Below, one piece after another: positions 394 to 57,299 of a DNA stretch of 64,000 bases. Under the pieces are notes generated by a model, which had not been told where the DNA came from, ran no database searches, and saw only the letters and a program-made list of their open reading frames with translations. Each line of letters starts with the position of its first letter. Position 1 is the stretch's first letter. The position numbers and the translations under genes were made by a program. The DNA comes from an uncultured Anaerolineales bacterium (lineage in GTDB: Bacteria; Chloroflexota; Anaerolineae; B4-G1): NCBI GenBank assembly GCA_964474655.1, contig CAYYTU010000002.1, forward strand, positions 64,095-128,094, written 5' to 3'.

Positions 394-3300
394 CTAATCT
401 TCCGCGGTCTCACCGTCGCCATCGCCGCCGTCTGTCGGCGGCTGGGATAGCTCCTGAGCGCTGCCCAGGCGAGCGAAGGTAGGCCGCCCCAAGGCCGTGC
501 CCAGCTCACGTACAGCCGCCCGCACGATGGCATCCGGGTCAGTAAAGCCACGCACGTGGGCCGTGATCTCGCGCAGCGTCTCCTCCCGGCGGGCGCGGGC
601 CTGCGCTCGCTCCAGCAGGCGACGGCTCGCAACAACAGGGGCGGCGAGTGTCACCAAGGCCCGGTAGATTTCCCGTTCCCGCTCGCTGAACTGGTGTGGC
701 TCATCCCAGGAAAGGGTCACAAGGCCCGCCCATCGCCCGACCTGCGTCAAAGGAATGATCGCCACCGCACGGACGCCGAATTGTTGGAGGAAACGCTTGA
801 CATCCCCATCAATTCGCTCGTCGTGCGCCAGATCAGAGACGAGCAGCGGGCTATGAGGCTCGCCTTCCCACAGACGGGTGACGGGGAACTCGGCGAGTGG
901 AAGATGCCGGCCCACCGACTCTTCCAGTGCTCCCCCTCGACGCCAGACGGCCACCGTAGTCAGGCCCGTGGGTTCGCCTTGCTCATCAAGGTCGACGTAA
1001 GAGAGTTTCGCATCAAAAGCGCCGGATTCGATGGCCGTCCGTGCCAAAGCTTGGAGCAGATCCTCTTTGGTATCGGCCTCGTTGAGCTCCCGGCTGATCT
1101 CGTACAACATCTCAGCTTCGGCCAGCGCATCCTGCGTCTGCTCAAACAAGCGAGCATTCTCAATCGCGGTAGCCACCTGATCGACCATCGTCTGGAAGAC
1201 AGTGACATCCTCCTCGGAGAAGGCGGCCGCCTCGGTGCTCTGAACGGTCAACGCGCCGATGATCTCGCCACGGGCGGTGATCGGAAGCGCCAGCTCGGAG
1301 CGCGTCTCCGGCAGATAAGGATTATCAAAGCGGGCAGCCTCGTCGCCCACGTCCAGCGCGATACGGGCTTCCCCCTCGGCGACGCAGCTACCGACCATTG
1401 AGTCGCCGCCGACCCGCAACTTATGCCCGTCCTCCAACATCTGGCGTCCGGCCTCGCCGGTGCCTGTGCGCAAGACGGCCCATTCGCCCGGCTCGCCCGT
1501 CCACTCACCGGTCTCATCGACCATAAAGAGCCCGACGTAGTAGAGGTCGAAGCGCTCACGGACCGTATCGGCCGTGCGCCGAATCAGTTCATCGGGGTCG
1601 AGGATGACGCCGGTCGAGCTAGCCACCTCGGCCACGGCTGCCAGCTGGCGTGCGCGCTTCTCAATCTGCTGAGCGGCCAAGCGCTGCTCGATGTAACTTT
1701 CGAGCCGCCGGACGACGCCCCCTAGCATAGCGCTCTCCTCGTCGATGAAATCCCGATCCTCTTCGTAAGCGACGTAGAGATGACCGGCAGTCTCGCCAGA
1801 GATTCGCAGCGCCGAGACGACGTGACACGACAGCTCAAGGGCCTGGGGCTGACCATACACTTGCTCCTCAAACTTGATGGCGGTCACGCAAACTTCCGGA
1901 TACCGCATCGCCGAAGGAATACGCCCAGCGACCCACTGGAGCAAGTCGGGGATCGAGGGCTCCTCGGCTATGTACTGGCCCACGTCAGTCAGGCAGTTGA
2001 GCTCCTTAACGCGTTCGTTGAGCATCTGCTCGGCGCGTACGCGCTCGGTGATATCCTTTGTAAATCCCAGGAAGCGCGTATCGGACAGTTTGACCGCATC
2101 CACAGTCCAGTATCTTTCGGCTCCATCCTTCCTGATGAACTTGAAATCTCCGGTGGCCTTGCCCGTCTCAGTGAGTTGCTGGAAATGGTCCCCCGCCTCC
2201 GCCATACTCTCAGGAGGTAACAGATCGACGATATGCATTTCCAGGAGTTCTTCGCGGCTGTACCCCGTAATACGACAGGCCGCCTCGTTGACCTCCAGGT
2301 ATCGCCCCTCCTCGTCGGAGATGAAAATGCCATCGGGAGCGTTGTCGATGTAGCTTCGGTATCGCTCCTCGCTCTGCTGCAGCGCCTTCTCAGTCTCCTT
2401 GAGGTCCGTGATGTCCAGGAAGGTGCCAATCAATCCGCCCACGCTGCCATCGGGGTTCCGGAACGTGGTCTTGTAGAATACAACATCCCGGATCGATCCA
2501 TCAGCGTACTCAATCGGGGCCTCATAAGATTCTGTGCACGGATTGTTAAGCATCTCCATATCCAACTCGTGATAGAGCTCGGCCATTTCTTGATCGGGGG
2601 TTATATCGTAGACCGTCTTACCTTTCACATCCTCACCGGGCATACCCAGATACTCCAGGAAAGCCTCGTTGCAGCCGAGGTAGACCCCCTCTGCATCCTG
2701 GTAAAAGATCGGATTGGGTATGTTGTCGACGATGGTGTCCAGGAACTGTTGGGATTCTTGGACTTCGGCGAGCAAGTTGGTGCTCTCAATCGCGCTGGCG
2801 ATCTGCCCGGCCAGACCAAGCAACATCACCTGATCCTCTTCGGTCAGGGCGCCGGCCTGGTCGCTTTGGACGTCGAGCACGCCCAGCACCTCGTCGCGCA
2901 ATTTGATCGGCACTGCCAGCTCGCCCTCCGTCTCCGGCAAGTCTGGATGCGGCTTCCAGTGCGGATCGGCGGTGACGTCGGAAGCCAGCATCGGCTCTCC
3001 GGTAGCGGCAGCGGTGCCGACGACCCCCTCCCCGTAGGGCAAATGGTGCTCGGCCGCCTTCATCTTATCGCCGATCTCTCCATAGCCCTCGACCACCCGC
3101 ATCGCTTCGAGGTCCTCATCGTAGCGGAAGATCTGGACGTGATAATAGCCCAAGCGTTCCTTGACCAGCGTGACGACACGCCTATAGAGCGAATCCAACG
3201 CCGGGGCCCCGGCAATCTCCTGCGCGATTTCGGTGGTGAGCTCCACCTGCTGAGCGCGGCGCTCCAACGACTCCTGAATCTGTCGCTCCAACTGTCGGCG

Positions 3301-5220
3301 CTCGGCGTTTGCCAGCACCTGCGCCACCTGATCGGCGATAGCCCCGGCAAAGCTCAATTCGTCGGGCCTCCACTCACGCGGTTCGCCAACGTGCTCGTGG
3401 CACACGACGCCGACCGTCTCGCCGGTCATCCGAATCGCCGAGTCCAGCATTGAGGTAATCCCTAGCGGTTCCAGATAATCCTCGGCAAACTCGCTGGTGC
3501 GCGGATCGGTGCGAGCGCGATCGGCGTCGATCGTCCGCTCAGTCGTCACTGCCGAGAAGTAAGCGGGGTAATCCTCCGCCTCAAGGACGACGCCCTCGGT
3601 GTGAGTTTCCGACGTGCGTTCGAAGAGATCCTGGCACGTTATCGCCCGCTGATTCTCATCCAGCATCCAGATACTGACCCGTTCGACGTCCATCGTTTCG
3701 GCCACTGTCTCCGTGATAGCTGATAGGGCCTCCTCCCAATCGCCGCTCACGACAGCGTCGTGGGTAGCCAACTCGGCGATAGCATGCTGTTGCCGCTGGA
3801 CGCGCTCCAATCGAGCCTGCTGCGCTCTCTCCGTCCGCTTGCGATCAAGGGCGCTGACAAACGTTTCGCCCACCAGATGGAGAAGGGTCGCGTCATCCTC
3901 AGACCAGGCCCGCTCCTCCTCCACCGCGTCAAACCCCAGGAATCCCACCAACTCACCCTGGTACATAGCGGGGACGACGATGAGCGATTGAATGCCCTCC
4001 GATTCAAACTCCGCCTTCTCGATCCTGGCTTCGTCGGGCATATCGGCCACGCGAGGCACCAGAACATCCTCATGGTTACGAAGCTTCTCCATCAGCCATG
4101 GGAACTGGTCGCTGGGCACTTCCTGCAAGTCGTCAATGGCGGACGCAATACCTTCAGCGCACCATTCGTGAGTATTGCTCATCTGCTCCCCATCCTCGGA
4201 GAATAAGAAGAGATAGCTGCGATCCGCCTCCGTGAACTTCCCAATATCCCGCATGGCCCGGTCGATCTCGACATCCACCGCCTGCGGCTTTACATTGACG
4301 AACCGCGTGGAGATGTTGGCGATGAGGTCCTCGAATTCAGCGCGGTACTCCAACGACCGCTCCGCTTGTTTGCGCTCGGTCACGTCGCGGATGATGGCCA
4401 GCACTTCATCCTCGCCGCTGACGACCATTCGGGCTTCGTAGTCGCGCAGCACATCGTCTTCCATACGGGGCAACCGGTACTCATAGATCGCCGGTTGACC
4501 CGAAGCCAGAACTTTCTCTATATGCTCATTGGTGAGCTGAGCGACGTGCGGAGGCAGAACGTCCTCTATATTCTGCCCCAGGAAAGCCCTCGGGGGCAAG
4601 GCCAGATCGCCTCTGCCAGCGTGGAAGTCGATGAAGACCCCCTCCCGATTCAGTCGGAACATCAAGTCGGGAATAGCCTCAAGCAATGTCTCCATCTGGG
4701 CCTGGCTCTGCTGCAACTCCTCTTCCGCCCGACTACGTTCGGTGATATCGGAGATGAAGCCCTCCAGGGCCACCAGCTCGCCGTCGTCCGAGAAGACACC
4801 CTGCCCGCGCTCCCAGACCCAGCGGGGCTCACCTTCAGCGTCTCTGATGCGATAGGTGACCTGGAAAGGCTCTTTTTTCTCAACGCCAGCCTGGACTACC
4901 TCCCACACGAGGTCCTGGTCGTCCGGATGGATCAAATCGCCATAAGCCACCAGACGGCTACCGATCAAATCCTCAGGGGCATAGCCGGTCAAGTCCTCGG
5001 CCCCTTCGCTGACGAACGCCATCGGCCAATCGGGCTCGTTGCGGCAGCGGTACGCCATGCCCGGCAAGTTGCTCATCAGCCTCGAAAGCCGACGATGGCT
5101 TTCCAACAACTTTTCCCTCGTCAATTCGCGCCCGGTGAGCTCTTCGGTCATACTTTCCTCCTCGATGGGGCCGGAGCCCTCATTCCGAACTTCCCGTTCA
5201 GGCCTCTCATTATCCATCAT
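394..5220 (-). CDS. Large cytoplasmic multi-PAS / multi-GAF signalling protein (1608 aa) with no recognisable output domain. Carries the conserved C-terminal tail module shared with the GAF paralog array.
   Basis: Six-frame ORF. Several PAS-like segments at the N-terminus, for example LMFRLNREGVFIDFHAG and DITERKQAE. Several GAF domains with the LDVQS / NARLFEQ signature. C-terminus reads REETLREITAHVRGFTDPDAIVRAAVRELGTALGRPTFARLGS followed by a DG-rich tail. Start ATGATG has GGGAG 8 nt upstream. Confidence 0.8.
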   Translation of the reverse strand: MMDNERPEREVRNEGSGPIEEESMTEELTGRELTREKLLESHRRLSRLMSNLPGMAYRCRNEPDWPMAFVSEGAEDLTGYAPEDLIGSRLVAYGDLIHPDDQDLVWEVVQAGVEKKEPFQVTYRIRDAEGEPRWVWERGQGVFSDDGELVALEGFISDITERSRAEEELQQSQAQMETLLEAIPDLMFRLNREGVFIDFHAGRGDLALPPRAFLGQNIEDVLPPHVAQLTNEHIEKVLASGQPAIYEYRLPRMEDDVLRDYEARMVVSGEDEVLAIIRDVTERKQAERSLEYRAEFEDLIANISTRFVNVKPQAVDVEIDRAMRDIGKFTEADRSYLFLFSEDGEQMSNTHEWCAEGIASAIDDLQEVPSDQFPWLMEKLRNHEDVLVPRVADMPDEARIEKAEFESEGIQSLIVVPAMYQGELVGFLGFDAVEEERAWSEDDATLLHLVGETFVSALDRKRTERAQQARLERVQRQQHAIAELATHDAVVSGDWEEALSAITETVAETMDVERVSIWMLDENQRAITCQDLFERTSETHTEGVVLEAEDYPAYFSAVTTERTIDADRARTDPRTSEFAEDYLEPLGITSMLDSAIRMTGETVGVVCHEHVGEPREWRPDELSFAGAIADQVAQVLANAERRQLERQIQESLERRAQQVELTTEIAQEIAGAPALDSLYRRVVTLVKERLGYYHVQIFRYDEDLEAMRVVEGYGEIGDKMKAAEHHLPYGEGVVGTAAATGEPMLASDVTADPHWKPHPDLPETEGELAVPIKLRDEVLGVLDVQSDQAGALTEEDQVMLLGLAGQIASAIESTNLLAEVQESQQFLDTIVDNIPNPIFYQDAEGVYLGCNEAFLEYLGMPGEDVKGKTVYDITPDQEMAELYHELDMEMLNNPCTESYEAPIEYADGSIRDVVFYKTTFRNPDGSVGGLIGTFLDITDLKETEKALQQSEERYRSYIDNAPDGIFISDEEGRYLEVNEAACRITGYSREELLEMHIVDLLPPESMAEAGDHFQQLTETGKATGDFKFIRKDGAERYWTVDAVKLSDTRFLGFTKDITERVRAEQMLNERVKELNCLTDVGQYIAEEPSIPDLLQWVAGRIPSAMRYPEVCVTAIKFEEQVYGQPQALELSCHVVSALRISGETAGHLYVAYEEDRDFIDEESAMLGGVVRRLESYIEQRLAAQQIEKRARQLAAVAEVASSTGVILDPDELIRRTADTVRERFDLYYVGLFMVDETGEWTGEPGEWAVLRTGTGEAGRQMLEDGHKLRVGGDSMVGSCVAEGEARIALDVGDEAARFDNPYLPETRSELALPITARGEIIGALTVQSTEAAAFSEEDVTVFQTMVDQVATAIENARLFEQTQDALAEAEMLYEISRELNEADTKEDLLQALARTAIESGAFDAKLSYVDLDEQGEPTGLTTVAVWRRGGALEESVGRHLPLAEFPVTRLWEGEPHSPLLVSDLAHDERIDGDVKRFLQQFGVRAVAIIPLTQVGRWAGLVTLSWDEPHQFSEREREIYRALVTLAAPVVASRRLLERAQARARREETLREITAHVRGFTDPDAIVRAAVRELGTALGRPTFARLGSAQELSQPPTDGGDGDGETAED

Positions 5221-20104: not shown

Positions 20105-20285
20105 AACACACTTCCCCCAGCCCGGCAATGGGCAAACGAAGCAATTCCAAAGCCTCGTAGACACATCAGATTACCTACAAACGCGTTTACCGAGCGTATC
20201 AACCCCAGCACCATTTACCTTCTTCGCACCTGAGCACACTCTGTGGCATTGAAGGCACTTTCGCAGACGATTCGCTTCGAAAACC
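20105..20285 (-). repeat. Copy B of a ~150-180-bp dispersed leader repeat (parts 1 and 2), in minus orientation immediately upstream of the NMT1-like solute-binding gene.
   Basis: The reverse complement aligns at about 85% identity with 29071..29225. Shared blocks are CGAATCGTCTGCGAA, GCCACAGAGTGTGCTCAG, GAT(A/G)CGCTCGGTAAACGCG and GGTGCTTTGGAA(C/T)TG(C/T)TTCG. Confidence 0.7.
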
Positions 20286-20316
20286 ATCGATTACGCCAGA
20301 ACTTCACGGGCCTGCT

Positions 20317-28959: not shown

Positions 28960-29070
28960 CGAACGCCTCCTGAATGCAGTTACTGATGAACCTAGCAACA
29001 GTTAGTATAATATAGCATAAGACAACCTTACTTTCCAATAGGAGATTAGTACTATACCACCGCTGGGTTC

Positions 29071-29225
29071 TCGAAACGAATCGTCTGCGAAGGCACCTTC
29101 AACGCCACAGAGTGTGCTCAGATGCGAACAAGACAAACGAATCTGGGGGTGATGCGCTCGGTAAACGCGCCTCTCGGCAAGCTAATGCGTCCAGGGTGCT
29201 TTGGAACTGTTTCGTCTGTCCCCGC
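29071..29225 (+). repeat. Copy A of the dispersed leader repeat (part 1 at 29071..29172, part 2 at 29181..29225), in the 5' leader of the lipoprotein gene.
   Basis: Aligns with the reverse complement of 20105..20285 and with split copy C (33548..33575 and 33926..33990). It is in the same orientation relative to the downstream gene in all three cases. Confidence 0.7.
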
Positions 29226-29324
29226 TACGGCTGGTTTGCCGCCAAGAAAAATATGGTACAATAGCCAGCGTGTGAGACACCAACCGCATTCGCCACGGCG
29301 AACGATAGATACCAGGAGGTTCCT

Positions 29325-30035
29325 GTGCAAAAGAGACGTTTGCTCTTAGCTGCTGCCGCGCTCATCATCGTGACGTTGGCCTGTGGATTACCTGCCGCGC
29401 CAACAGTCACCCCTGAGGAAAGAGCCGGGACGGGAGAACCGACGCCCACGTCGCAGGCGACACCAGACCAACCTACGCCCAGCGACACCCCCGCTCCCAC
29501 CGAGACGGCCACGCCCACCGAACCGGCGACCGAAGCGCCTACCCCAACGCCTGAGCCCACGTCGGTGCTTTCCTGTACTATCGACATTGCCCCCGAGCTT
29601 GCGCCGCGGCTCAACGCTCACCCCGCCAAACTGCGGGCGCTGGGTTGCCCCATCGACCCCGCCCAACAGACCTGGGCCGCCGAGCAGCGCTTCCAGCTCG
29701 GGCGTATGTTCTGGCAAGAAGATACGGGAGAGATCCATCTGGTCTACGACGACGAAACGTACCAGATAGAGCCAAACCAGTACCAGGAATCTTCCGCCCA
29801 ATACCCGTGCCCGGAGGAAGGTCCACCGCCGCCCAGCCTGGAGATGCCCAAACGCGGCTTCGGCTGGCACTGGTGTAACACACCCAACGTCCAGGAGAAG
29901 ATTGGCTGGGCGCTGGAAGAGGAGATCGGCTACGAAGCCGCCTGGCAAACGTTCGAGAACGGCCACGCGCTATCCAGCCACCTCAACCACGTCTTCATCT
30001 TCTACAACGACGGCACCTGGGATTACATTGAGTAA
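29325..30035 (+). CDS. Secreted lipoprotein with a Pro/Thr-rich linker and a C-terminal Cys-containing domain of unknown function.
   Basis: GTG start with GGAGG 6 nt upstream. Signal peptide and lipobox LLAAAALIIVTLAC. TPEPT-type low-complexity linker. Probable extended -10 TGGTACAAT at about 29252..29260. Confidence 0.65.
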   Translation: MQKRRLLLAAAALIIVTLACGLPAAPTVTPEERAGTGEPTPTSQATPDQPTPSDTPAPTETATPTEPATEAPTPTPEPTSVLSCTIDIAPELAPRLNAHPAKLRALGCPIDPAQQTWAAEQRFQLGRMFWQEDTGEIHLVYDDETYQIEPNQYQESSAQYPCPEEGPPPPSLEMPKRGFGWHWCNTPNVQEKIGWALEEEIGYEAAWQTFENGHALSSHLNHVFIFYNDGTWDYIE

Positions 30036-30087
30036 CGACGGTGAAGCCCAGGTCCCGACGGACAAGCCAGTGGGACATGCCGACCCT

Positions 30088-30936
30088 ATGACCTCACAAG
30101 AATGGTTCCTGTATACGCTACGCTGCGCTGATGATACCTTCTATACCGGTATCACCACCGACCTCGCGCGTCGCGTGGCGGAGCACAACGCCGGACGAGG
30201 CGCCCGCTACACCACCGGTCGGCGCCCGGTCAAGCTGATCGGAGCCTGGCGCTTCCCCGACCGCAGCGCGGCCCAAAGCGCCGAGTTCGCTTTCAAGAAG
30301 CTCTCTCAAGCACGGAAGCTTTCAACGGTGGCCCGCGAACGTCCCTTCCGGAACGCCCCATTCCACCACGATAAGCAAGTACCCGAGGAGATGCGGGGCA
30401 CCATCCGCTTCTGCCCCCGCTGCGGGGGTCTGCTGCACGAGCGCAGAGAGCAGGCCCCTGCAAACGAGAGCCGAACCCGCCTCGTCTGCGCCGGCTGCGG
30501 GCGGATCCACTACCGCAACGCCAAGCCTTGCGCCGGCGCCCTGATCGTGCGCGACGGGAAAGTGTTGCTGATCAAACGCGCCATCCAGCCCTTTCGCGGT
30601 CACTGGGATATTCCCGGCGGCTTCCTGGAGGTAGACGAACATCCAGAGGACGGCGTCATCCGAGAAGTGGAGGAGGAAACCGGGCTGACCATCCGCCCAA
30701 CCGGGCTGTTTGGCTTCTATATGGACCGCTACGGCGAAGAGGGCGTCCATTGCCTCAACATTTACTTCACAGCTTGCGTCATCGGCGGTCAGGAGCACAC
30801 CAACGATGAAGTAACCGAGATAGCCTGGTTTGGCCCCGACGAATTGCCCGAGCGAATCGCCTTCAGCCATGCCCACGACGTCCTGAAAACCTGGGCCCAG
30901 TCGATGGAAGAGGCCTCATCAGCGAGCACGACGTGA
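30088..30936 (+). CDS. GIY-YIG nuclease-domain / C4 zinc-ribbon / NUDIX hydrolase fusion protein (NudC-like architecture).
   Basis: N-terminal block FLYTLRCADDTFYTGITTDLARRVAEHNAGRGARYT is a GIY-YIG motif. Zinc ribbon is CPRCGG...CAGCG. NUDIX box is GGFLEVDEHPEDGVIREVEEETGL. The ATG at 30088 is in-frame within tool ORF 29902..30936. Confidence 0.75.
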   Translation: MTSQEWFLYTLRCADDTFYTGITTDLARRVAEHNAGRGARYTTGRRPVKLIGAWRFPDRSAAQSAEFAFKKLSQARKLSTVARERPFRNAPFHHDKQVPEEMRGTIRFCPRCGGLLHERREQAPANESRTRLVCAGCGRIHYRNAKPCAGALIVRDGKVLLIKRAIQPFRGHWDIPGGFLEVDEHPEDGVIREVEEETGLTIRPTGLFGFYMDRYGEEGVHCLNIYFTACVIGGQEHTNDEVTEIAWFGPDELPERIAFSHAHDVLKTWAQSMEEASSASTT

Positions 30937-32600
30937 AACAAATCCCGCATCCCGCGCCCCAGGCCTTTCTGCAACGCACTCGTCACTTCCTGAGCGACCT
31001 ATACATCCACTTCTTGATCTCCGAGACGGTGGTGATGGTCACGCTGGCCCTCTTCGTGGGGCTGGGAGCAGGCTTCAGCGCCGTGGCCCTCCGCCGGCTG
31101 ATCGACCTCGCCCACCACTTCTTCTTCGGCACGCTGGGCCAATGGCTCAGCTTTATGGGCACTTACTACATCATCATCCTCCCCGCGCTGGGAGGCCTGC
31201 TGGTCGGCATATTGATCACCTTTTTGGCCCCAGAGGCCAGGGGCGCTGGTGTAGGCAACGTGATGGAAGCCATAGCCGGCTATGGGGGGCGAATTCGCCC
31301 CCTGGTGGCCGTCGTAAAGCCCGTCGCCACCGCACTCTGTCTCGGCAGCAGTGGATCGGCCGGCCGCGAAGGCCCCATCGTCCAGACCGGGGCTGCCATC
31401 GGCTCCAGCCTCGGGCAGGTGCTCCATCTATCCGACGAGCGAACCAAGAGACTGGCCGCCTATGGCGTGGCAGGCGGCATTGCTGCCACCTTCAACGCCC
31501 CGCTCACCGGCGCGATATTCGCGCTAGAGATCCTGCTGACCGAGTTCGGCTTGATGCAATTCAGCGGGGTAGTGGTCTCCTCCGTCACCGCCAGCGTGAT
31601 TGGACACGCTTATTTCGGGAACGTCCCGGCCTTTTCACTTCCCACCTCTTACTACAACCCCATTGCCGCCGGAGAGCTGCCGATCTACGGCCTGCTCGGC
31701 GTGATGGCCGCCTTCGTCGGCGTCGGTTTCACCCACACCTTCTACAAAATCGACCATCTCTTCCAATCCTGGTCCACCCCCTCATATCTCAAACCGATGA
31801 TCGGCGGGCTACTGGTTGGAGTGATCGGGTTCTGGTTCCCGCAACTCTTCGGCGTGGGGTACGAAACAATCGAGAACGTGCTTTCCGGCCGCTTCTCCCT
31901 CAACCTCATCGTCGTCCTGGGCACGCTCAAGATTTTGACCACAGGGCTCACCATCGGCTCCGGCAGCTCGGGTGGCGTCTTCGCCCCGCTGCTCTTCGTC
32001 GGCGCACTGCTCGGCGGCCTCTTCGAGCATATCGTGGCCCCGTGGCTCCCGACCAGCGCATCGACGTCGTCCCCCTACGTCCTCGTGGGTATGGCCGCCG
32101 TCTTCGGCGCCGCCAATCGCGCGCCCATCACGGCCATCCTGACGCTCTTCGAGATGTCACGCGGCTACCACGTGATCTTACCGCTTATGTTCTCCACCGT
32201 CATCAGTGCCACCATCGCCCACAACCTCTACGACCAGAGCATCTACACCGTCAACCTGGAGCATCACGAGATCGACATTCGACATCTGCGCGGGATGCTC
32301 CGCCGCGGCGACATCATCCAAGCCTACTCCCACACCCACCTGGACGAGCAAGCCCGGCTGGCCGCCCAGATCGTGGAGATCACCCTGCGAAACCATCACT
32401 ATGCAACCGGCAAGACGCTGAAGAAATTGAACTTGCCTTCGGACTGCCTCATCGCCTCGATCCGCCGGGGTAACCAGATACTCATCCCTCGCGGCGAGAC
32501 CCGCCTGGAAGCCGGCGACGTGATCGTTGCCCTGACCGCAGATGAGAACCAGACCGCACTGAGGACGCACCTGACCCATGGAGAAGAAAATGACTTCTGA
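30933..32600 (+). CDS. ClC-family chloride/proton channel with a C-terminal TrkA-C-like regulatory domain.
   Basis: ClC selectivity motifs GSAGREGP and GIFAP(L)LF, with about 10 TM helices. The GTG start overlaps the upstream stop (GTGA). The C-terminus GETRLEAGDVIVAL is TrkA-C-like. Confidence 0.8.
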   Translation: MKQIPHPAPQAFLQRTRHFLSDLYIHFLISETVVMVTLALFVGLGAGFSAVALRRLIDLAHHFFFGTLGQWLSFMGTYYIIILPALGGLLVGILITFLAPEARGAGVGNVMEAIAGYGGRIRPLVAVVKPVATALCLGSSGSAGREGPIVQTGAAIGSSLGQVLHLSDERTKRLAAYGVAGGIAATFNAPLTGAIFALEILLTEFGLMQFSGVVVSSVTASVIGHAYFGNVPAFSLPTSYYNPIAAGELPIYGLLGVMAAFVGVGFTHTFYKIDHLFQSWSTPSYLKPMIGGLLVGVIGFWFPQLFGVGYETIENVLSGRFSLNLIVVLGTLKILTTGLTIGSGSSGGVFAPLLFVGALLGGLFEHIVAPWLPTSASTSSPYVLVGMAAVFGAANRAPITAILTLFEMSRGYHVILPLMFSTVISATIAHNLYDQSIYTVNLEHHEIDIRHLRGMLRRGDIIQAYSHTHLDEQARLAAQIVEITLRNHHYATGKTLKKLNLPSDCLIASIRRGNQILIPRGETRLEAGDVIVALTADENQTALRTHLTHGEENDF

Positions 32601-33522
32601 GACCTCACCCCCTTCTCGGCCCATTCGCCTGATCGTTCACGGCGGCGCCTGGGACATTCCACCCGAGCTCCACCGACCACACGTCGAAGGCTGCACAGAG
32701 GCGGCAAGAGCAGCCCAGGAGGTGCTCGAGCGCGATGGAACCGCGCTGGAGGCCGTCGAGACCGCCGTGCGTCGGATGGAGGACGATCCCACCTTCGACG
32801 CCGGGCGTGGCTCCTTCCTCAACGCCGAGGGCGAGGCTGAGCTGGACGCTATTATTATGGACGGCCGCGATCTCAACCTGGGCGCGGTGGCGTCCGTGCG
32901 TCGCATCCGCCATCCGATCACCCTGGCGCGGCTGATTATGACCGAGTGTAAGCACGCGCTGCTCGTCAGCGAGGGCGCCGAGGCCTTCGCCCGTCAGCAC
33001 GGGCTGACGCTTTGCGCCAACCAGGATCTGATCACGACGCGCGAAAGGGAACGCTGGCGCGCCGAGCGCGACAGCGAGACCACACAGGACCTCTTCGGCG
33101 ACACCGTCGGGGCGGTGGCGCGGGACGCCTACGGGAACGTGGCGGTCGGCACCTCAACCGGCGGCACGTTCAAGAAACATCCGGGGCGCGTGGGCGATTC
33201 GCCCTTGATCGGCTGCGGGAGCTACGCCGACAACCGCATCGGCGCCGCCTCGGCCACCGGCGAAGGCGAGGCGCTAATGAAAGTGGTCATCAGCAAGACC
33301 GTGTGCGATCTGATGGCACAGGGACTGACGGCTCAGGAGGCCGCCGACGCTGCCATCCAGCTGCTGATCGAACGCACTGGCGGGCGTGGCGGCCTGATCG
33401 TGCTGGGCACACGCGGCGACATCGGCCTTGCGCACAACACGCCATACCTCGCTCACGCCCACGTCACCACCGACGGCGACATCGCAGCCGGCCTCATGTC
33501 CTCTCCGGAGGCCCAGCTGTGA
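32590..33522 (+). CDS. iaaA: Isoaspartyl peptidase / L-asparaginase (Ntn-hydrolase, plant-type asparaginase family).
   Basis: Contains HGGAW, the autoproteolysis site GTVGAVARD and GDSPLIGCG. The preferred start MTSET at 32590 has GGAGAAG upstream. The tool start is 32578. Confidence 0.8.
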   Translation: MTSETSPPSRPIRLIVHGGAWDIPPELHRPHVEGCTEAARAAQEVLERDGTALEAVETAVRRMEDDPTFDAGRGSFLNAEGEAELDAIIMDGRDLNLGAVASVRRIRHPITLARLIMTECKHALLVSEGAEAFARQHGLTLCANQDLITTRERERWRAERDSETTQDLFGDTVGAVARDAYGNVAVGTSTGGTFKKHPGRVGDSPLIGCGSYADNRIGAASATGEGEALMKVVISKTVCDLMAQGLTAQEAADAAIQLLIERTGGRGGLIVLGTRGDIGLAHNTPYLAHAHVTTDGDIAAGLMSSPEAQL

Positions 33523-33615
33523 GACCCAAGTGCTGCGCCCCCTTCGGCTGAAGTCTGATACGCTCGGTAAACGCGCCTGTAGAATTTTGATAGACGAAAT
33601 CGGTAACGAGGTTGA

Positions 33616-33824
33616 GGCACGGTCAGGAGACCGGCCCCAGCGGGTAAAAGTGCATTAGGGTAAAAGTCGCACCTAATCGCTCAAAGCCACCGTCTCGGGG
33701 GCGTCCGACACGATTTTTGTGCCCTAAACGCCCTCGGGGACGAGGGCTGTGAACAGTGGAAAAGTCGGTGTGTCACTTTTACCTCAATGCGTAAAAGTGC
33801 TCTGGCCGGTCTCCCGACCGTGCC
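33616..33824. ncRNA. Candidate structured non-coding RNA domain (about 210 nt) closed by a 21-bp long-range helix.
   Basis: GGCACGGTCAGGAGACCGGCC (33616..33636) is the reverse complement of GGCCGGTCTCCCGACCGTGCC (33804..33824) with one mismatch. Internal complementary pairs include GGTAAAAGTG / CACTTTTACC, CGGGGGCGT / ACGCCCTCG and GCCCTC / GAGGGC. It lies in a 1.1-kb ORF-poor lower-GC intergenic region. The strand is undetermined. Confidence 0.4.
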
Positions 33825-34620
33825 AGCGGTACTCTCGACAGAAATGAAACACAACCCAATCAATCTAATCTGACGAAAGAAATCACGTCTTTACCGAACT
33901 TGAACGTCAAAACTCATTAGGCAATCGATTGCGTCTAGGGTGCTTGGGAACTGCTTCGCTTGCCCATCCGACAGGCTTCGGCCTGAGCCCAGCCGAACGG
34001 CTCAGGATGACTATCGAGGGATCAACTTCGTTGAAATCCCGTTGTAGTGCTAAGGAACCTCGTAATAACCTCCCCCTTTTCAGATTGAGCCAAAATTACC
34101 CTCCGACGAGCTTCGGATGATTTTGGCGACCTCCGAGTGCAAAGCCACTCGAAATCGCCCTTCGACGCTCAGGGCAATTTCTCGCTAGACAGTGAGCAAG
34201 AAAGTCATCTGCTCGTCGTTCCTAAAGATGGTACCATAGTACCATCTTGACCCCGTAACTACGCCCCCTCTCTGTCCGTTAGTCAAAATGAATAGGTCGA
34301 CAATGGCAACATAACATTCCGGGTCTCCAGGATTTCGCTGGCCGGCAACTCGGGCTAGCTCAGAGGGGGTGTTCCACCCCCGTATCGGGTCCGAAATTGG
34401 GCCTGGCCCCCAGATATGGGACGCGGGTGACACACCCGCTGTGAGCACCCTTGAGCACCACGCAAAATCCCAAAGAGCCAACATTCCAAGCCACCAGCGA
34501 TCAAATACTGAGGAACGCGTCTCCCCCTATGGGACCCTATCACAAAACTTAAAACACGCGCCCAAGTAGATTTGGGTCGAAAAGACCCCGCACCAAGAAG
34601 TAAAAGATAAGGAGGATCAG

Positions 34621-35556
34621 ATGACAACGGTATTGATTGTACTGACAATCGCGTCCTTGGTCGGAGGAGGCCTGGTTCAAGTGGCCGACGAATCCGGCCC
34701 AGGCAGCCCGCTCTATGAGCTGAATCGAAGAATCGAGGCGGTCCAGATCGAGATGACGACCAATCCCACGGCCAGGACCGAGCTCCAGACGAATCTGGCC
34801 GAAGAGCGACTAGAAGAGGCCGAAGCATTAGCCCAAGCGGGTGAAATAGAAAACGCTCGCCAGGCCCTGCAGATCTATGATGAGCAGGTCTCTCACACCA
34901 CACAGACCGACGAAGTCGATGAAGCTGCGTTGCTTGGGTCCCTCGCCAACCACGAGGAACAGTTGGACCGAATATACAACGCCTTAGCAGATCGCGCCAG
35001 AGAGGACGATACCTCCGGACAGCCCGATAACGAACCCCCAAATCAGGAAGAAGAGGAAGGGGAAGGGGAAGAAGAAGAAGAGAACGAAAGTGAGCTCCCC
35101 ACCGATTCACCCTGGTGCACCGGTGAATGGGAACATCCCGTAGCCAGCCAGATGGCCTCCTACCACGACGTGAGCTACAACGAAGTCATCGGGTGGTTCT
35201 GCAACGAGGGCTACGGCCTCGGCGAAATCAAATTGGCGTTGCAAACGAGCCAACTGCTCGGATCCACAGACGTACTGACCGACACCAGCGCCGGTGCGCT
35301 TCTGACGATGAAGAGGGAGCTAGGTGGCTGGGGAGACGTATGGCAAGATTTCGATCTGATCGGTCAGCCCGATGAGGCTGCCCCCCCCGAAGAAGTCGGT
35401 CCACCCGAGGAAGTCGGGCCTCCAGATGAAGCTGGCCCACCTGACGACGCCGGCCCTCCCGACGAAGCCGGGCCCCCAGACGAAGCTGGCCCACCTGACG
35501 GCGCTGGCCCACCTGACGACGCCGGGCCCCCCGCTAAAGGCGGTCCCAATAACTGA
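34621..35556 (+). CDS. Membrane-anchored protein with a coiled coil, an acidic stretch, a Cys-containing domain and C-terminal GPPDEA hexapeptide tandem repeats.
   Basis: AAGGAGG lies 7 nt upstream of the ATG. N-terminal TM segment VLIVLTIASLVGGGLV. Eight 18-bp DNA tandem repeats at 35395..35545 encode (E/D)(E/A)(V/A)GPP-type repeats. Confidence 0.6.
   Translation: MTTVLIVLTIASLVGGGLVQVADESGPGSPLYELNRRIEAVQIEMTTNPTARTELQTNLAEERLEEAEALAQAGEIENARQALQIYDEQVSHTTQTDEVDEAALLGSLANHEEQLDRIYNALADRAREDDTSGQPDNEPPNQEEEEGEGEEEEENESELPTDSPWCTGEWEHPVASQMASYHDVSYNEVIGWFCNEGYGLGEIKLALQTSQLLGSTDVLTDTSAGALLTMKRELGGWGDVWQDFDLIGQPDEAAPPEEVGPPEEVGPPDEAGPPDDAGPPDEAGPPDEAGPPDGAGPPDDAGPPAKGGPNN
35395..35545 (+). 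repeat. About 8 tandem 18-bp repeats inside the coding sequence (GG(C/G)CC(A/C)CC(T/C)GA(C/G)GA(A/C)G(C/T)(C/T)).
   Basis: Direct read: ggtccacccgaggaagtc / gggcctccagatgaagct / ggcccacctgacgacgcc and so on. Confidence 0.8.
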
Positions 35557-57099: not shown

Positions 57100-57275
57100 A
57101 GAATCTCGGCTGCTCCCACTCCCTTCCGCGAGGATGTGTGGAGCCGATGGCGGCGGGCGATCTGACTTCCTGGTCGAGCCAGGTTACAGCTGCGGGACAA
57201 CGCCGGACTCTCACCGGCTTCGCCGTTGCCACCCGGGCCATCCGGAGCCGCGGGTACCGCCATCGCTCGTTTCAA
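57100..57275 (-). ncRNA. Probable cobalamin (B12) riboswitch aptamer upstream of cbiMNQO.
   Basis: Minus-sense sequence contains GGTGAGAGTCCGG (consensus GGTGAAAATCC), CCCGCAGCTGTAA (consensus CCCGCAACTGTAA) and a B12-box-like AGTCAGATCGCCCGCC. Upstream of a cobalt transporter is the classical position. Confidence 0.6.
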
Positions 57276-57299
57276 TTGTCAACGTCAGTAAACCAGTAG

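Follow-up and report, generated by a model that had tools for sequence, protein, structure and literature searches.

The region studied here is a 1.1-kb gap between iaaA and the next gene, located within a 64-kb stretch of DNA (hereafter the window). The two genes lie on the same strand, and the gene 3' of the gap has a strong ribosome-binding site. The lower GC content described in the initial annotation is real: the GC fraction falls from 0.62-0.69 in iaaA to 0.50-0.58 over 33500-34700. The gap is also ORF-poor as claimed, containing short ORFs only, and a 251-aa antisense ORF belongs to the opposite strand of the next gene. A Pfam search with five gap ORFs gave no credible match. Four of the five showed no match up to E = 0.1, and the fifth, which overlaps the end of iaaA, showed a sub-threshold match to CBM_19 (17.5 bits, below the cut-off of 20.1; E = 0.004).

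The gap had been highlighted for an RNA-like domain closed by a 21-bp helix. The 21-nt inverted repeat (33616-33636 and 33804-33824) was confirmed, with a single mismatch and 167 nt enclosed. The mismatch is A.C on the plus strand and would give G.U on the minus strand. In an inverted-repeat search the arms could be extended to 26 nt with 88% complementarity and 167 nt between them. The segment 33610-33830 was predicted to fold into a single long hairpin on both strands, with z-scores of -7.6 and -9.7 relative to shuffled sequence. The nested complementary segments GGTAAAAGTG and CACTTTTACC (33643-33652 and 33774-33783) and the hairpin GCCCTC-ggggac-GAGGGC were also present as described. More than 790 nt separate the domain 33616-33824 from the next start codon, and the nested palindromes described below are located 94 nt past the iaaA stop codon. 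The features assigned to the region are as follows.

33550..33582, plus strand: 5' piece of leader repeat copy C, TGATACGCTCGGTAAACGCGCCTGTAG, ending in TAG; matched by BLAST to copies A and B and by nhmmer to profile positions 82-114 (E = 5e-7)
33583..33917, no strand: extra segment of about 335 nt in copy C, missing from copies A and B; flanked by TAG at 33580-33582 and TAG at 33918-20
33616..33636, plus strand: REP-like 21-nt unit, GGCACGGTCAGGAGACCGGCC; its hairpin has the stem GGC-a-CGGTC and the loop AGGA, and a conserved CC-AGC tail comes next
33644..33651: left copy of the target-site duplication, GTAAAAGT; direct repeat, perfect (8/8)
33652..33790, no strand: MITE, non-coding, 139 bp, with paired ends and target-site duplication
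33652-33672: left terminal repeat of the MITE, GCATTAGGGTAAAAGTCGCAC; type of the transposase-distal end of the IS
33770-33790: right terminal repeat of the MITE, GCATTGAGGTAAAAGTGACAC on the minus strand; type of the transposase-proximal end of the IS
33791..33798: right copy of the target-site duplication, GTAAAAGT; direct repeat, perfect (8/8)
33804..33824, minus strand: second REP-like hairpin unit, inverted, GGCACGGTCGGGAGACCGGCC on the minus strand
33917..33974, plus strand: 3' piece of leader repeat copy C, TAGGCAATCGATTGCGTCTAGGGTGCTTGGGAACTGCTTCGCTTGCCCAT; matched by BLAST and by nhmmer (E = 3.4e-14)
34225..34248, no strand: perfect 10+10 palindrome, AAGATGGTAC-cata-GTACCATCTT, outside the nested element
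34357..34447, no strand: second long hairpin, unrelated to the nested element; its two small GC hairpins are inverted copies of a unit of about 34 nt

The innermost layer is the 139-bp MITE. Its terminal inverted repeats are 21 nt long (GCATTRRGGTAAAAGTSRCAC), with 81% complementarity between the two arms. Both ends fit the family pattern with no mismatches, whereas 0.00 matches are expected in the window. The two copies of the duplication are spaced by 147 nt, that is, 139 + 8, and the chance of an 8-bp duplication at fixed positions is about 1.5e-5 (arithmetic, 4^-8). Joining 33651 to 33799 reconstructs the empty site as GGGTAAAAGTGCTCT. The only ORFs overlapping the element encode 60 aa and 32 aa, and neither has a Pfam match. 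The MITE is an intact non-autonomous transposon, which keeps just both 21-bp terminal inverted repeats of an IS of about 1.8 kb. Another 139-bp MITE (L186) aligns with it over the full length (74% over 156 nt). Since a scan of the 64-kb window gave a single MITE copy and no autonomous IS, it is from the relatives that we infer that the MITE may be mobile in this genome.

No empty-site allele was found when Logan contigs of the same organism and the nearest relative were compared. The exact iaaA and DUF5667 proteins occurred only in Logan contigs of the same organism, which break inside palindromes at 33706 and 34409. The same organism is present in samples SRR7048219, SRR7048227 and SRR7048228. 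Downstream of iaaA, in which it is 83% identical, the nearest relative shows no synteny. The MITE end was found in no viral contig.

The same ends occur elsewhere. The end pattern matched 64 metagenome contigs; the sequence beyond GCATT was unrelated in all of them, and many of the matches lay at contig ends. Outside the window, paired ends bound 22 elements of 1803-1814 bp and 17 elements of 78-171 bp, and perfect AT-rich duplications of 8 bp were found in at least 15 paired-end elements (e.g. CTAATTAG, GTATTAAG and GTGAAAAC). A complete element of 1809 bp (L164) contains one ORF of 568 aa. The 568-aa product of the parent IS, which is about 1.8 kb long, is a DDE transposase of the IS256/Mutator type. 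D160, D216, CxxH and NxxE (E472) are invariant in 34 homologues. We take these motifs to be the DDE triad, the CxxH motif and 'TNNxxES..K/R' around the E, with a helical insertion between the second D and the E.

An AF2 model of the transposase (pLDDT 79.5) was compared with the PDB by Foldseek. The best matches were the IS256-family ISCth4 structures 6xgx_A (E = 2.5e-7) and 6xg8_A (E = 1.1e-6), with a probability of 1.0 and low global TM-scores of 0.17-0.23, followed by the Hermes and P element transposases. As in the solved IS256-family transposase, the DDE core has an RNase-H fold into which a helical domain is inserted. The sequence fails the curated cut-off of NCBIfam transpos_IS256 (23.1 versus 150 bits) and is below that of Pfam MULE (19.4 versus 27.6 bits). 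At E <= 1e-20, 578 homologues were found, annotated merely as "hypothetical protein", and none of the homologues carries a precomputed Pfam domain. That the parent transposase family has no Pfam annotation adds modest interest to the element.

The target duplication of IS256 elements is 8-9 bp, and the parent IS likewise makes an 8-bp duplication. The likeness to this family extends to structure, the solved ISCth4 (PDB 6xgx and 6xg8) being the best structural match of the parent transposase. The parent transposase differs from the family, however, in scoring far below the curated cut-offs, in its length (568 aa against about 400 aa), in a D-to-E spacing of 256 residues and in an N-terminal zinc-ribbon-like region with weak resemblance to the IS66 N-terminus. 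A related IS is found on plasmids of Nostoc sp. PCC 7120, which carry a 1678-bp IS encoding a "transposase" of 497 aa (WP_010999504.1). The two transposases are 29% identical over 85% of the transposase length. The end core of the Nostoc element, GGCAAAACTTAC, is similar to the end of the parent IS; its 29-nt terminal repeats have a related core (GTGGCAAAACTTAC versus AGGTAAAAGTGAC), and it is flanked by an 8-bp duplication, GTCTTATC, as in the parent IS family. The Nostoc element, which is presumably IS892, is nevertheless distant in sequence, encodes a shorter transposase (497 aa) and belongs to a different phylum.

On both sides of the MITE lies one copy of the 21-nt hairpin GGCACGGTCRGGAGACCGGCC, an imperfect palindrome (GGC-a-CGGTC/AGGA/GACCG-GCC). 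The consensus of the hairpin with its flanks is G-S-K-GGCACGGTCRGGAGACCGGCC-M-S-AGC, in which the AGC at +23..+25 is conserved at 97%, 86% and 97%. The 21-mer matches the window twice, against 0.02 matches expected, and no further copy of it or of its CGGTC-N4-GACCG core was found in the window. The hairpin was found in at least 119 loci of other genomes, in Chloroflexota, Planctomycetota and other phyla, on at least 26 contigs of one MAG, and in 12 viral contigs. It is identical over 21 nt in Chloroflexota, Planctomycetota, Verrucomicrobiota, Hydrogenedentota and Desulfarculales, and this conservation to the nucleotide across phyla is of modest added interest. Copies are depleted in stop-free stretches of at least 200 aa (41% of copies versus 83% in the background). 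They occur singly, in inverted doublets or in tandem arrays. Among these arrangements the inverted doublet prevails: 50 pairs are of the '-+' kind, 29 of which have a spacer of 6 nt, and 9 are of the '+-' kind. The doublet in the window is of the '+-' kind and had a 20-nt spacer before the MITE insertion; the spacers of the other '+-' pairs are 12-31 nt. The reconstructed pre-MITE site is 77% identical to the doublet of locus L117 over 66 columns. The hairpin and IS/MITE families are independent of each other: no hairpin was found in 364 kb of IS/MITE loci, and the hairpin loci contain at most one near-match, with 3 mismatches, to the IS end.

The surroundings of the hairpin were also analyzed. 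All-against-all clustering of 3532 ORFs from the 119 loci gave only generic multidomain proteins as recurrent neighbours. A Pfam scan of 134 ORFs adjoining the repeat showed housekeeping genes and no recurrent family, with no Y1 transposase among the best 25 of 117 families. One locus (L030) has two '+-' copies 2.1 kb apart and was considered as an IS, but an ordinary secreted-protein gene lies between them. The tandem copies, with a period of 35-90 nt, have no unique spacers, and a CRISPR array was rejected. A full-text literature search with the hairpin sequence returned one unrelated human primer only. In several MAGs, MITEs equipped with terminal repeats and 8-bp duplications of their own have the 21-mer at their centre. 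These MITEs have at least two kinds of terminal repeat, GTATCWTCTCAATAA (two MAGs) and GTCATG.GAGTA (another). As a speculative and rather doubtful idea, the hairpin might go beyond a lineage-specific REP and represent a functional module, so far undescribed, that spreads horizontally and is carried or targeted by different transposons, for example a recognition hairpin for a conserved enzyme or a DNA/RNA-binding protein. The parent IS, for its part, belongs to a large transposase family without Pfam entry.

The outermost layer concerns a repeat found upstream of local genes. BLAST matched leader copies A (29150-29172) and B (20201-20175), and the split of copy C into two halves was verified by both BLAST and nhmmer. 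The domain does not lie exactly between the halves, as had been proposed: they are 335-338 nt apart (33583-33920), and the 209-nt domain is the middle part of this segment. Joining 33582 to 33921 restores the colinearity of copy C with A and B. The two ends of the segment of about 335 nt (33575-33612 and 33886-33923) match each other weakly and imperfectly as an inverted repeat some 38 nt long. With a score of 24, compared with a mean of 15.7 for shuffled sequences, this repeat is marginal: 6 of the 500 shuffles scored as high (p about 0.01). The segment is possibly an older MITE-like element that carries the hairpin doublet and would itself have been mobile.

The nested arrangement could have arisen in the following way. 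An older insertion at a TAG in copy C of the local 165-nt upstream repeat would have brought in the doublet together with its flanks, about 188 nt in all prior to the arrival of the MITE. A transposase supplied in trans would bind both ends of the MITE, cut an AT-rich target with an 8-bp stagger and insert the MITE, whereby GTAAAAGT would be duplicated. The target was the 20-nt spacer between the two inverted copies of the 21-nt hairpin. None of these steps needs, or gives evidence for, a function of a transcript. We conclude, with a probability of about 90%, that the region consists of repeated DNA in nested layers and is not an RNA gene. The "21-bp closing helix" arises because two copies of the 21-nt REP-like repeat face each other, and the "nested complementary segments" because of the terminal repeats and internal palindromes of the MITE. 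Since the long helix derives from nested mobile DNA, no riboswitch or new RNA gene is called for. The element is ordinary mobile DNA of a known kind. The initial annotation had offered a degraded mobile element, as if inserted into the leader repeat, as one of its candidates. The mobile element stands; it is an intact MITE rather than a degraded one, and it is nested, lying in a REP-like doublet that lies in a larger insertion.

The other candidate was a novel structured ncRNA or riboswitch-like leader, in which 33616-33824 would be transcribed, closed by the 21-bp helix, and would regulate the downstream DUF5667/DUF11 genes. This reading seems exceedingly improbable and is already largely refuted. 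The region does fold far better than shuffled sequence, occupies a long gap between same-strand genes, the downstream one of which has a strong ribosome-binding site, and its sole helix mismatch becomes G.U on the minus strand. However, the two strands fold equally well, as palindromic DNA would, each helix arm belongs to a repeat that is scattered over hundreds of unrelated places, transposon ends and an 8-bp duplication delimit the interior, and the next start codon is more than 790 nt away. Rfam 15 was searched with the whole window at the gathering score and with the region at E <= 10; the region gave only chance-level miRNA-type matches, and the sole match in the window was a cobalamin riboswitch elsewhere. 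Leader copy A gave no Rfam match at E <= 5. In an alignment of six related MITEs, none of 30 pairs was changed on both sides, and the alifold covariation term was +3.63. The relatives share their termini alone, with internal deletions of 12-45 nt and large insertions/deletions. No homologue of the interior as an RNA was found. A retron, ωRNA or bridge RNA was also considered and rejected, since no gene for RT, TnpB or IS110 adjoins the region and Rfam gave no match.

It might also be considered that the 209-nt segment is a single MITE or REPIN, with the 21-mers as terminal repeats, that moves as one unit. Its inverted 21-nt arms and its folding as one long hairpin would fit, and in locus L070 two copies in the same '+-' orientation enclose about 550 nt of non-coding sequence. 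The interior, however, comes with terminal repeats and a duplication of its own, while no target duplication lies outside 33616/33824. In addition, the interior is found in none of the 119 genome loci with the 21-mer, and the 21-mer in none of the 64 loci with the ends of the interior. Removal of the MITE and one duplication copy leaves a family-typical doublet with a 20-nt spacer, 77% identical to that of L117. A single unit is thus very unlikely. A co-opted role of the nested palindromes, such as a transcription terminator, an insulator or an mRNA-stabilising hairpin between iaaA and the downstream operon, is unlikely too, though the location 94 nt past the iaaA stop codon, the very stable hairpins and a terminator-like site inside the MITE (33695-33708) are consistent with it. 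A role in terminating transcription or stabilising mRNA has been hypothesised for REP elements (PMC3733652). The large stems, on the other hand, are not followed by a T-run, and the count of terminator-like sites is in modest excess only (5 versus 1.8 +/- 1.2 in shuffles). Such a role would in any case be a side effect of insertion, not a rival account of origin. The biological effect of the insertion in the window is probably small. The insertion is separated from the next start codon by more than 790 nt and sits within an already truncated copy of the upstream repeat.

Both the MITE and the 21-mer resemble known systems. Nezha, a MITE of Anabaena/Nostoc, is about 130-170 bp long and has terminal repeats in common with ISNpu3 (PMC3184786). 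Like Nezha-type MITEs, the element in the window is short (139 bp), non-coding and intergenic, has terminal repeats of the same type as those of a full-length IS, is flanked by direct repeats and is predicted to form a very stable hairpin. It differs in its end sequence and in its parent IS, which is unnamed, and its host is probably a member of Chloroflexota, whereas Nezha is cyanobacterial. For Nezha, empty and filled sites have been compared. The 21-mer resembles REP, REPIN and BIME units (PMC3733652) in that it belongs to the 20-40-nt class and folds into an imperfect hairpin that contains a bulge and has a loop of 4 nt. It is also high-copy in some genomes, mostly extragenic, and arranged in inverted doublets and some tandem clusters. 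REP/REPIN units have an unpaired GTAG or CGTC tag at one end (PMC3733652), and the consensus of the 21-mer has neither. Further differences are that no RAYT was seen next to it (best 25 of 117 families, 134 adjacent ORFs), that all of its 21 nt are the same in several phyla, and that in several MAGs it centres MITEs with their own terminal repeats and 8-bp duplications. Some MITEs, like REP elements, have been proposed to act as terminators, insulators or mRNA stabilisers.

Nested mobile DNA accounts fully for the 209-nt "RNA-like" fold (z near -8 to -10), and a false lead is thereby removed. Before long closing helices and nested complementary segments in a GC-rich genome are called an ncRNA, one should look there for terminal repeats, target duplications and copies of dispersed repeats. 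For annotation, GCATTRRGGTAAAAGTSRCAC ends with an 8-bp duplication mark the IS/MITE family, and the 21-mer GGCACGGTCRGGAGACCGGCC marks the REP-like repeat, which fragments assemblies and yields spurious small ORFs (e.g. "...RSGDRPQR...").

Farther downstream, the perfect palindrome described previously is present at 34225-34248, one base off the 34226-34249 first given. Within it, TGGTACCAT looks like an extended -10 box and was likened by eye to TATGGTACAAT at 29251-29263. The hairpins GGGGGTG-ttc-CACCCCC (34364-34380) and GCGGGTG-aca-CACCCGC (34423-34439) were also located, and no other copy of their unit of about 34 nt was found when looked for. Three Logan contigs begin at window position 34409, inside the second long hairpin.

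The 1.1-kb gap between the isoaspartyl peptidase gene (iaaA) and the DUF5667 gene had a GC content of 0.50-0.58, against 0.62-0.69 in the flanking genes. Its only ORFs were short or antisense to the DUF5667 gene and gave no credible Pfam match, the best being a sub-threshold match to CBM_19 (E 0.004) in an ORF overlapping the end of iaaA. These facts bear out the ORF-poor, lower-GC gap described in the initial annotation. The 21-nt inverted repeat proposed there, 33616-33636 / 33804-33824, is also real, with one mismatch; its arms can be extended to 26 nt with 88% complementarity and enclose 167 nt. A search of the window for the 21-mer gave two matches, where 0.02 were expected. The stretch 33610-33830 folds as one long hairpin on either strand (z = -7.6 and -9.7), and the smaller complementary segments and two GC hairpins noticed earlier were all present. 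The region consists of ordinary mobile DNA in nested layers, with a non-coding miniature transposon (MITE) inside a REP-like doublet. The features are as follows.

20120-20292 (-), leader copy B
29063-29230 (+), leader copy A
32578-33522, isoaspartyl peptidase gene, iaaA (Pfam Asparaginase_2)
33550-33582 and 33917-33974 (+), leader copy C, split
33583-33917, extra segment of 335 nt in leader copy C, missing from copies A and B and holding the hairpin doublet
33644-33651 and 33791-33798, target duplication GTAAAAGT flanking the MITE
33652-33790, MITE, 139 bp, both ends matching the end pattern with 0 mismatches
34357-34447, inverted pair of small hairpins forming a 91-nt long hairpin, unrelated to the nested element
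34621-35556, DUF5667 gene

The interior between the arms was not found among the listed genome loci holding the 21-mer, and metagenome contigs were therefore searched for its own inverted repeat, written as the degenerate pattern GCATTRRGGTAAAAGTSRCAC. All 64 matches, many of them at contig ends, had unrelated sequence outside GCATT and fell into a few families inside it; the GCATT boundary behaves as a transposon terminus does. One contig of 1809 nt (L164) carries the end motif inverted at both ends and a single 568-aa ORF, and represents a complete element, the parent insertion sequence (IS). When the ends were paired in all loci, 22 elements of 1803-1814 bp emerged, together with 17 of 78-171 bp outside the window; perfect 8-bp AT-rich duplications flank at least 15 of the paired elements. 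On its left, the window MITE has the GTCGCAC type of end, which in the IS is the transposase-distal one, and on its right the GTGACAC type, which precedes the transposase gene; these are the two ends that an internal-deletion derivative of the IS would keep. A 139-bp element in L186 can be aligned with the whole MITE (74% over 156 nt), and the MITE groups with elements in L195, L152, L179 and L185. The segments CGGGGGCGT / ACGCCCTCG and GCCCTC...GAGGGC, previously listed as nested complementary segments, are internal palindromes of the MITE; in GGTAAAAGTG / CACTTTTACC, the left copy of the duplication and the base that opens the left terminal repeat pair with part of the right terminal repeat. 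The 64-kb window holds one copy of the MITE and no autonomous IS.

A structured ncRNA or riboswitch-like leader had been proposed for this domain, with a mobile element as the alternative. The RNA proposal was unsupported, since the region folds equally on both strands, an Rfam search over it matched no family, and covariation was absent: in an RNAalifold analysis of six related MITEs, compensatory changes were found in 0 of 30 pairs, and the covariation term was positive (+3.63). The related MITEs have internal deletions of 12-45 nt and invariant termini. Such invariant termini with a variable interior are the pattern of a transposon, the opposite of that of a structured RNA. The mobile element was the right alternative, as indicated by the terminal repeats, the 8-bp duplication and the IS with the same ends.

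The 21-mer itself folds as a small hairpin (GGC-a-CGGTC, loop RGGA, GACCG-GCC). In a scan of one genome per species, the exact 21-mer was found in at least 119 stretches, where we estimate a chance expectation of about 2. Its hosts include many Chloroflexota MAGs (Anaerolineae, Caldilineae, Ardenticatenaceae, Thermoflexia) and, beyond this phylum, Planctomycetota (including contigs of 264 and 472 kb), Verrucomicrobiota, Hydrogenedentota and Desulfarculales. The conserved flanks are only a few bases long (G-S-K and, on the opposite side, M-S-AGC). Copies were rarer in long stop-free stretches, which contained 41% of them as compared with 83% of the background bases, and the neighbouring genes are unrelated housekeeping genes (134 adjacent ORFs; first 25 of 117 families listed). 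The 21-mer is a REP-like dispersed palindrome. It occurs as single units, tandem arrays (period 35-90 nt) and inverted doublets, the last being commonest among the loci listed; there, 50 doublets are of the '-+' type (spacer of 6 nt in 29) and nine are of the '+-' type, with spacers mostly of 12-62 nt. The pair in the window is a '+-' doublet. Tandem arrays of the 21-mer or doublet, some of them at contig ends, were found in four loci.

L005 691-978, period about 35 nt
L024 7229-7567, period about 43 nt
L042 6570-6690, period 42-93 nt
L058 4766-4921, period 78-90 nt

A CRISPR reading of these arrays was rejected because unique spacers are absent.

In two Chloroflexota MAGs, the hairpin doublet is central in MITEs of 111-113 bp that end in the terminal repeats GTATCWTCTCAATAA and have clear target duplications of 8 bp, possibly 9 bp in one locus.

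MAG DSAR01: L004, L021, L023, L056, L061 and others
MAG PHCA01: L062, L087

By eye, the hairpin in L037 apparently lies inside an element with other ends, GTCATG.GAGTA; one hairpin module therefore occurs in MITEs with differing termini. This 21-nt hairpin, kept across phyla and recurring centrally in MITEs whose ends differ, could be worth following up. Translation through the 21-mer gives peptide strings such as '...RSGDRPQR...' and '...GRPATTWGDRPQ...', as in the ORFs at 33428-33658 (+) in the window and 2063-4156 (+) in L030, and mechanical ORF lists therefore acquire spurious N-termini and small 'hypothetical proteins'. Plausibly, the 21-mer also adds spurious proteins to automatic annotations.

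The order of the insertions was analyzed on the basis of these elements. Without the MITE and one copy of the duplication, the sequence reads GGCACGGTCAGGAGACCGGCC-CCAGCGGGTAAAAGTGCTCT-GGCCGGTCTCCCGACCGTGCC, a '+-' doublet that has a spacer of 20 nt, resembles others of the 21-mer family and is 77% identical over 66 columns to a doublet in L117. Since a typical doublet is restored, the MITE was inserted into an already existing doublet. The 21-mer hairpin was absent from 364 kb of IS/MITE loci, and in the hairpin loci at most one near-match to the IS end was seen, with 3 mismatches (L060); apart from the nesting in the window, the two families are independent. Joining 33582 to 33921 restores colinearity of leader copy C with copies A and B, with TAG on either border, and the ends of 33583-33917 form a weak inverted repeat equalled by 6 of 500 shuffles. 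It is plausible that this layer would be an older MITE-like insertion, because the hairpin doublet is central in the GTATCWTCTCAATAA MITEs elsewhere. An empty-site allele of the MITE was not found in the Logan contigs of the same organism and relatives examined. Logan contigs from this organism stop at 33706, and three start at 34409; both positions are inside the two long palindromes, and we read them as assembly breaks and not variants.

The parent transposase (L164:23-1729 (-), with homologues P0121-P0240) gave sub-threshold family matches only: Pfam MULE (E 1.4e-3) and, in NCBIfam, the IS66 N-terminus (1.7e-6) and IS256 (3.2e-5). At E <= 1e-20 the transposase has 578 homologues, all of them lacking a precomputed Pfam domain. 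Nearly all the named ones are 'hypothetical protein', and most lie on contigs of 1.8-3 kb; family members are 565-640 aa long. In an alignment of 34 homologues, D160, D216, C237-x-x-H240 and N469-x-x-E472 (within "RTNNDLESLFGQxKRQ") are invariant, a pattern that we take to be the Mutator/IS256-type DDE signature. The AlphaFold2 model (pLDDT 79.5) most resembles the IS256-family ISCth4 transposase in the PDB (E 2.5e-7), followed by the Hermes and P element transposases, all with an RNase-H fold and an inserted helical domain. Among annotated proteins, the parent transposase is closest to a 'transposase' encoded on plasmids of Nostoc PCC 7120, with 29% identity across 85% of its sequence. The 1678-bp IS holding that gene, presumably IS892, has 29-nt terminal repeats with a core related to the ends of the parent IS, and likewise has an 8-bp duplication. 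A transposase family without a Pfam domain could also be worth following up.

Downstream of the nested elements, 33975-34620 (650 nt) had no homologue among any sequences fetched, and 33921-34620 folds moderately better than shuffles (z = -3.1). One unit of about 34 nt, present in two inverted copies, makes up the two tight GC hairpins, GGGGGTGttcCACCCCC and GCGGGTGacaCACCCGC; neither the window nor the fetched loci had a third copy. The perfect 10+10 palindrome of the initial annotation, AAGATGGTACcataGTACCATCTT, is present one base away from its reported position, at 34225-34248, and includes TGGTACCAT. By eye, TGGTACCAT is resembled by TATGGTACAAT (29251-29263), after leader copy A, and by TGTGGTATCAT, after the transposase-proximal IS end; these could represent promoter boxes of the extended -10 kind, or an operator.

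The leader repeat, about 165 nt long, has three copies within 14 kb, each just upstream of a gene. These genes encode a 236-aa protein that has no Pfam domain, an NMT1-like binding protein and the DUF5667 protein. In copies A and B, the two ends are complementary to each other (CGAARCG / YGYTTCG), and one compensatory change was seen; the repeat had no match in Rfam. A cis-regulatory RNA, a promoter module and another MITE are all candidates for its nature. In the window as a whole, the cobalamin riboswitch RF00174, at 57135-57276 (-), was the one Rfam family to exceed its threshold (54.3 bits, against a gathering score of 31.5). The ORF at 29902-30936 (+) encodes an unusual fusion of a GIY-YIG nuclease domain, a Nudix zinc ribbon and a NUDIX hydrolase domain.
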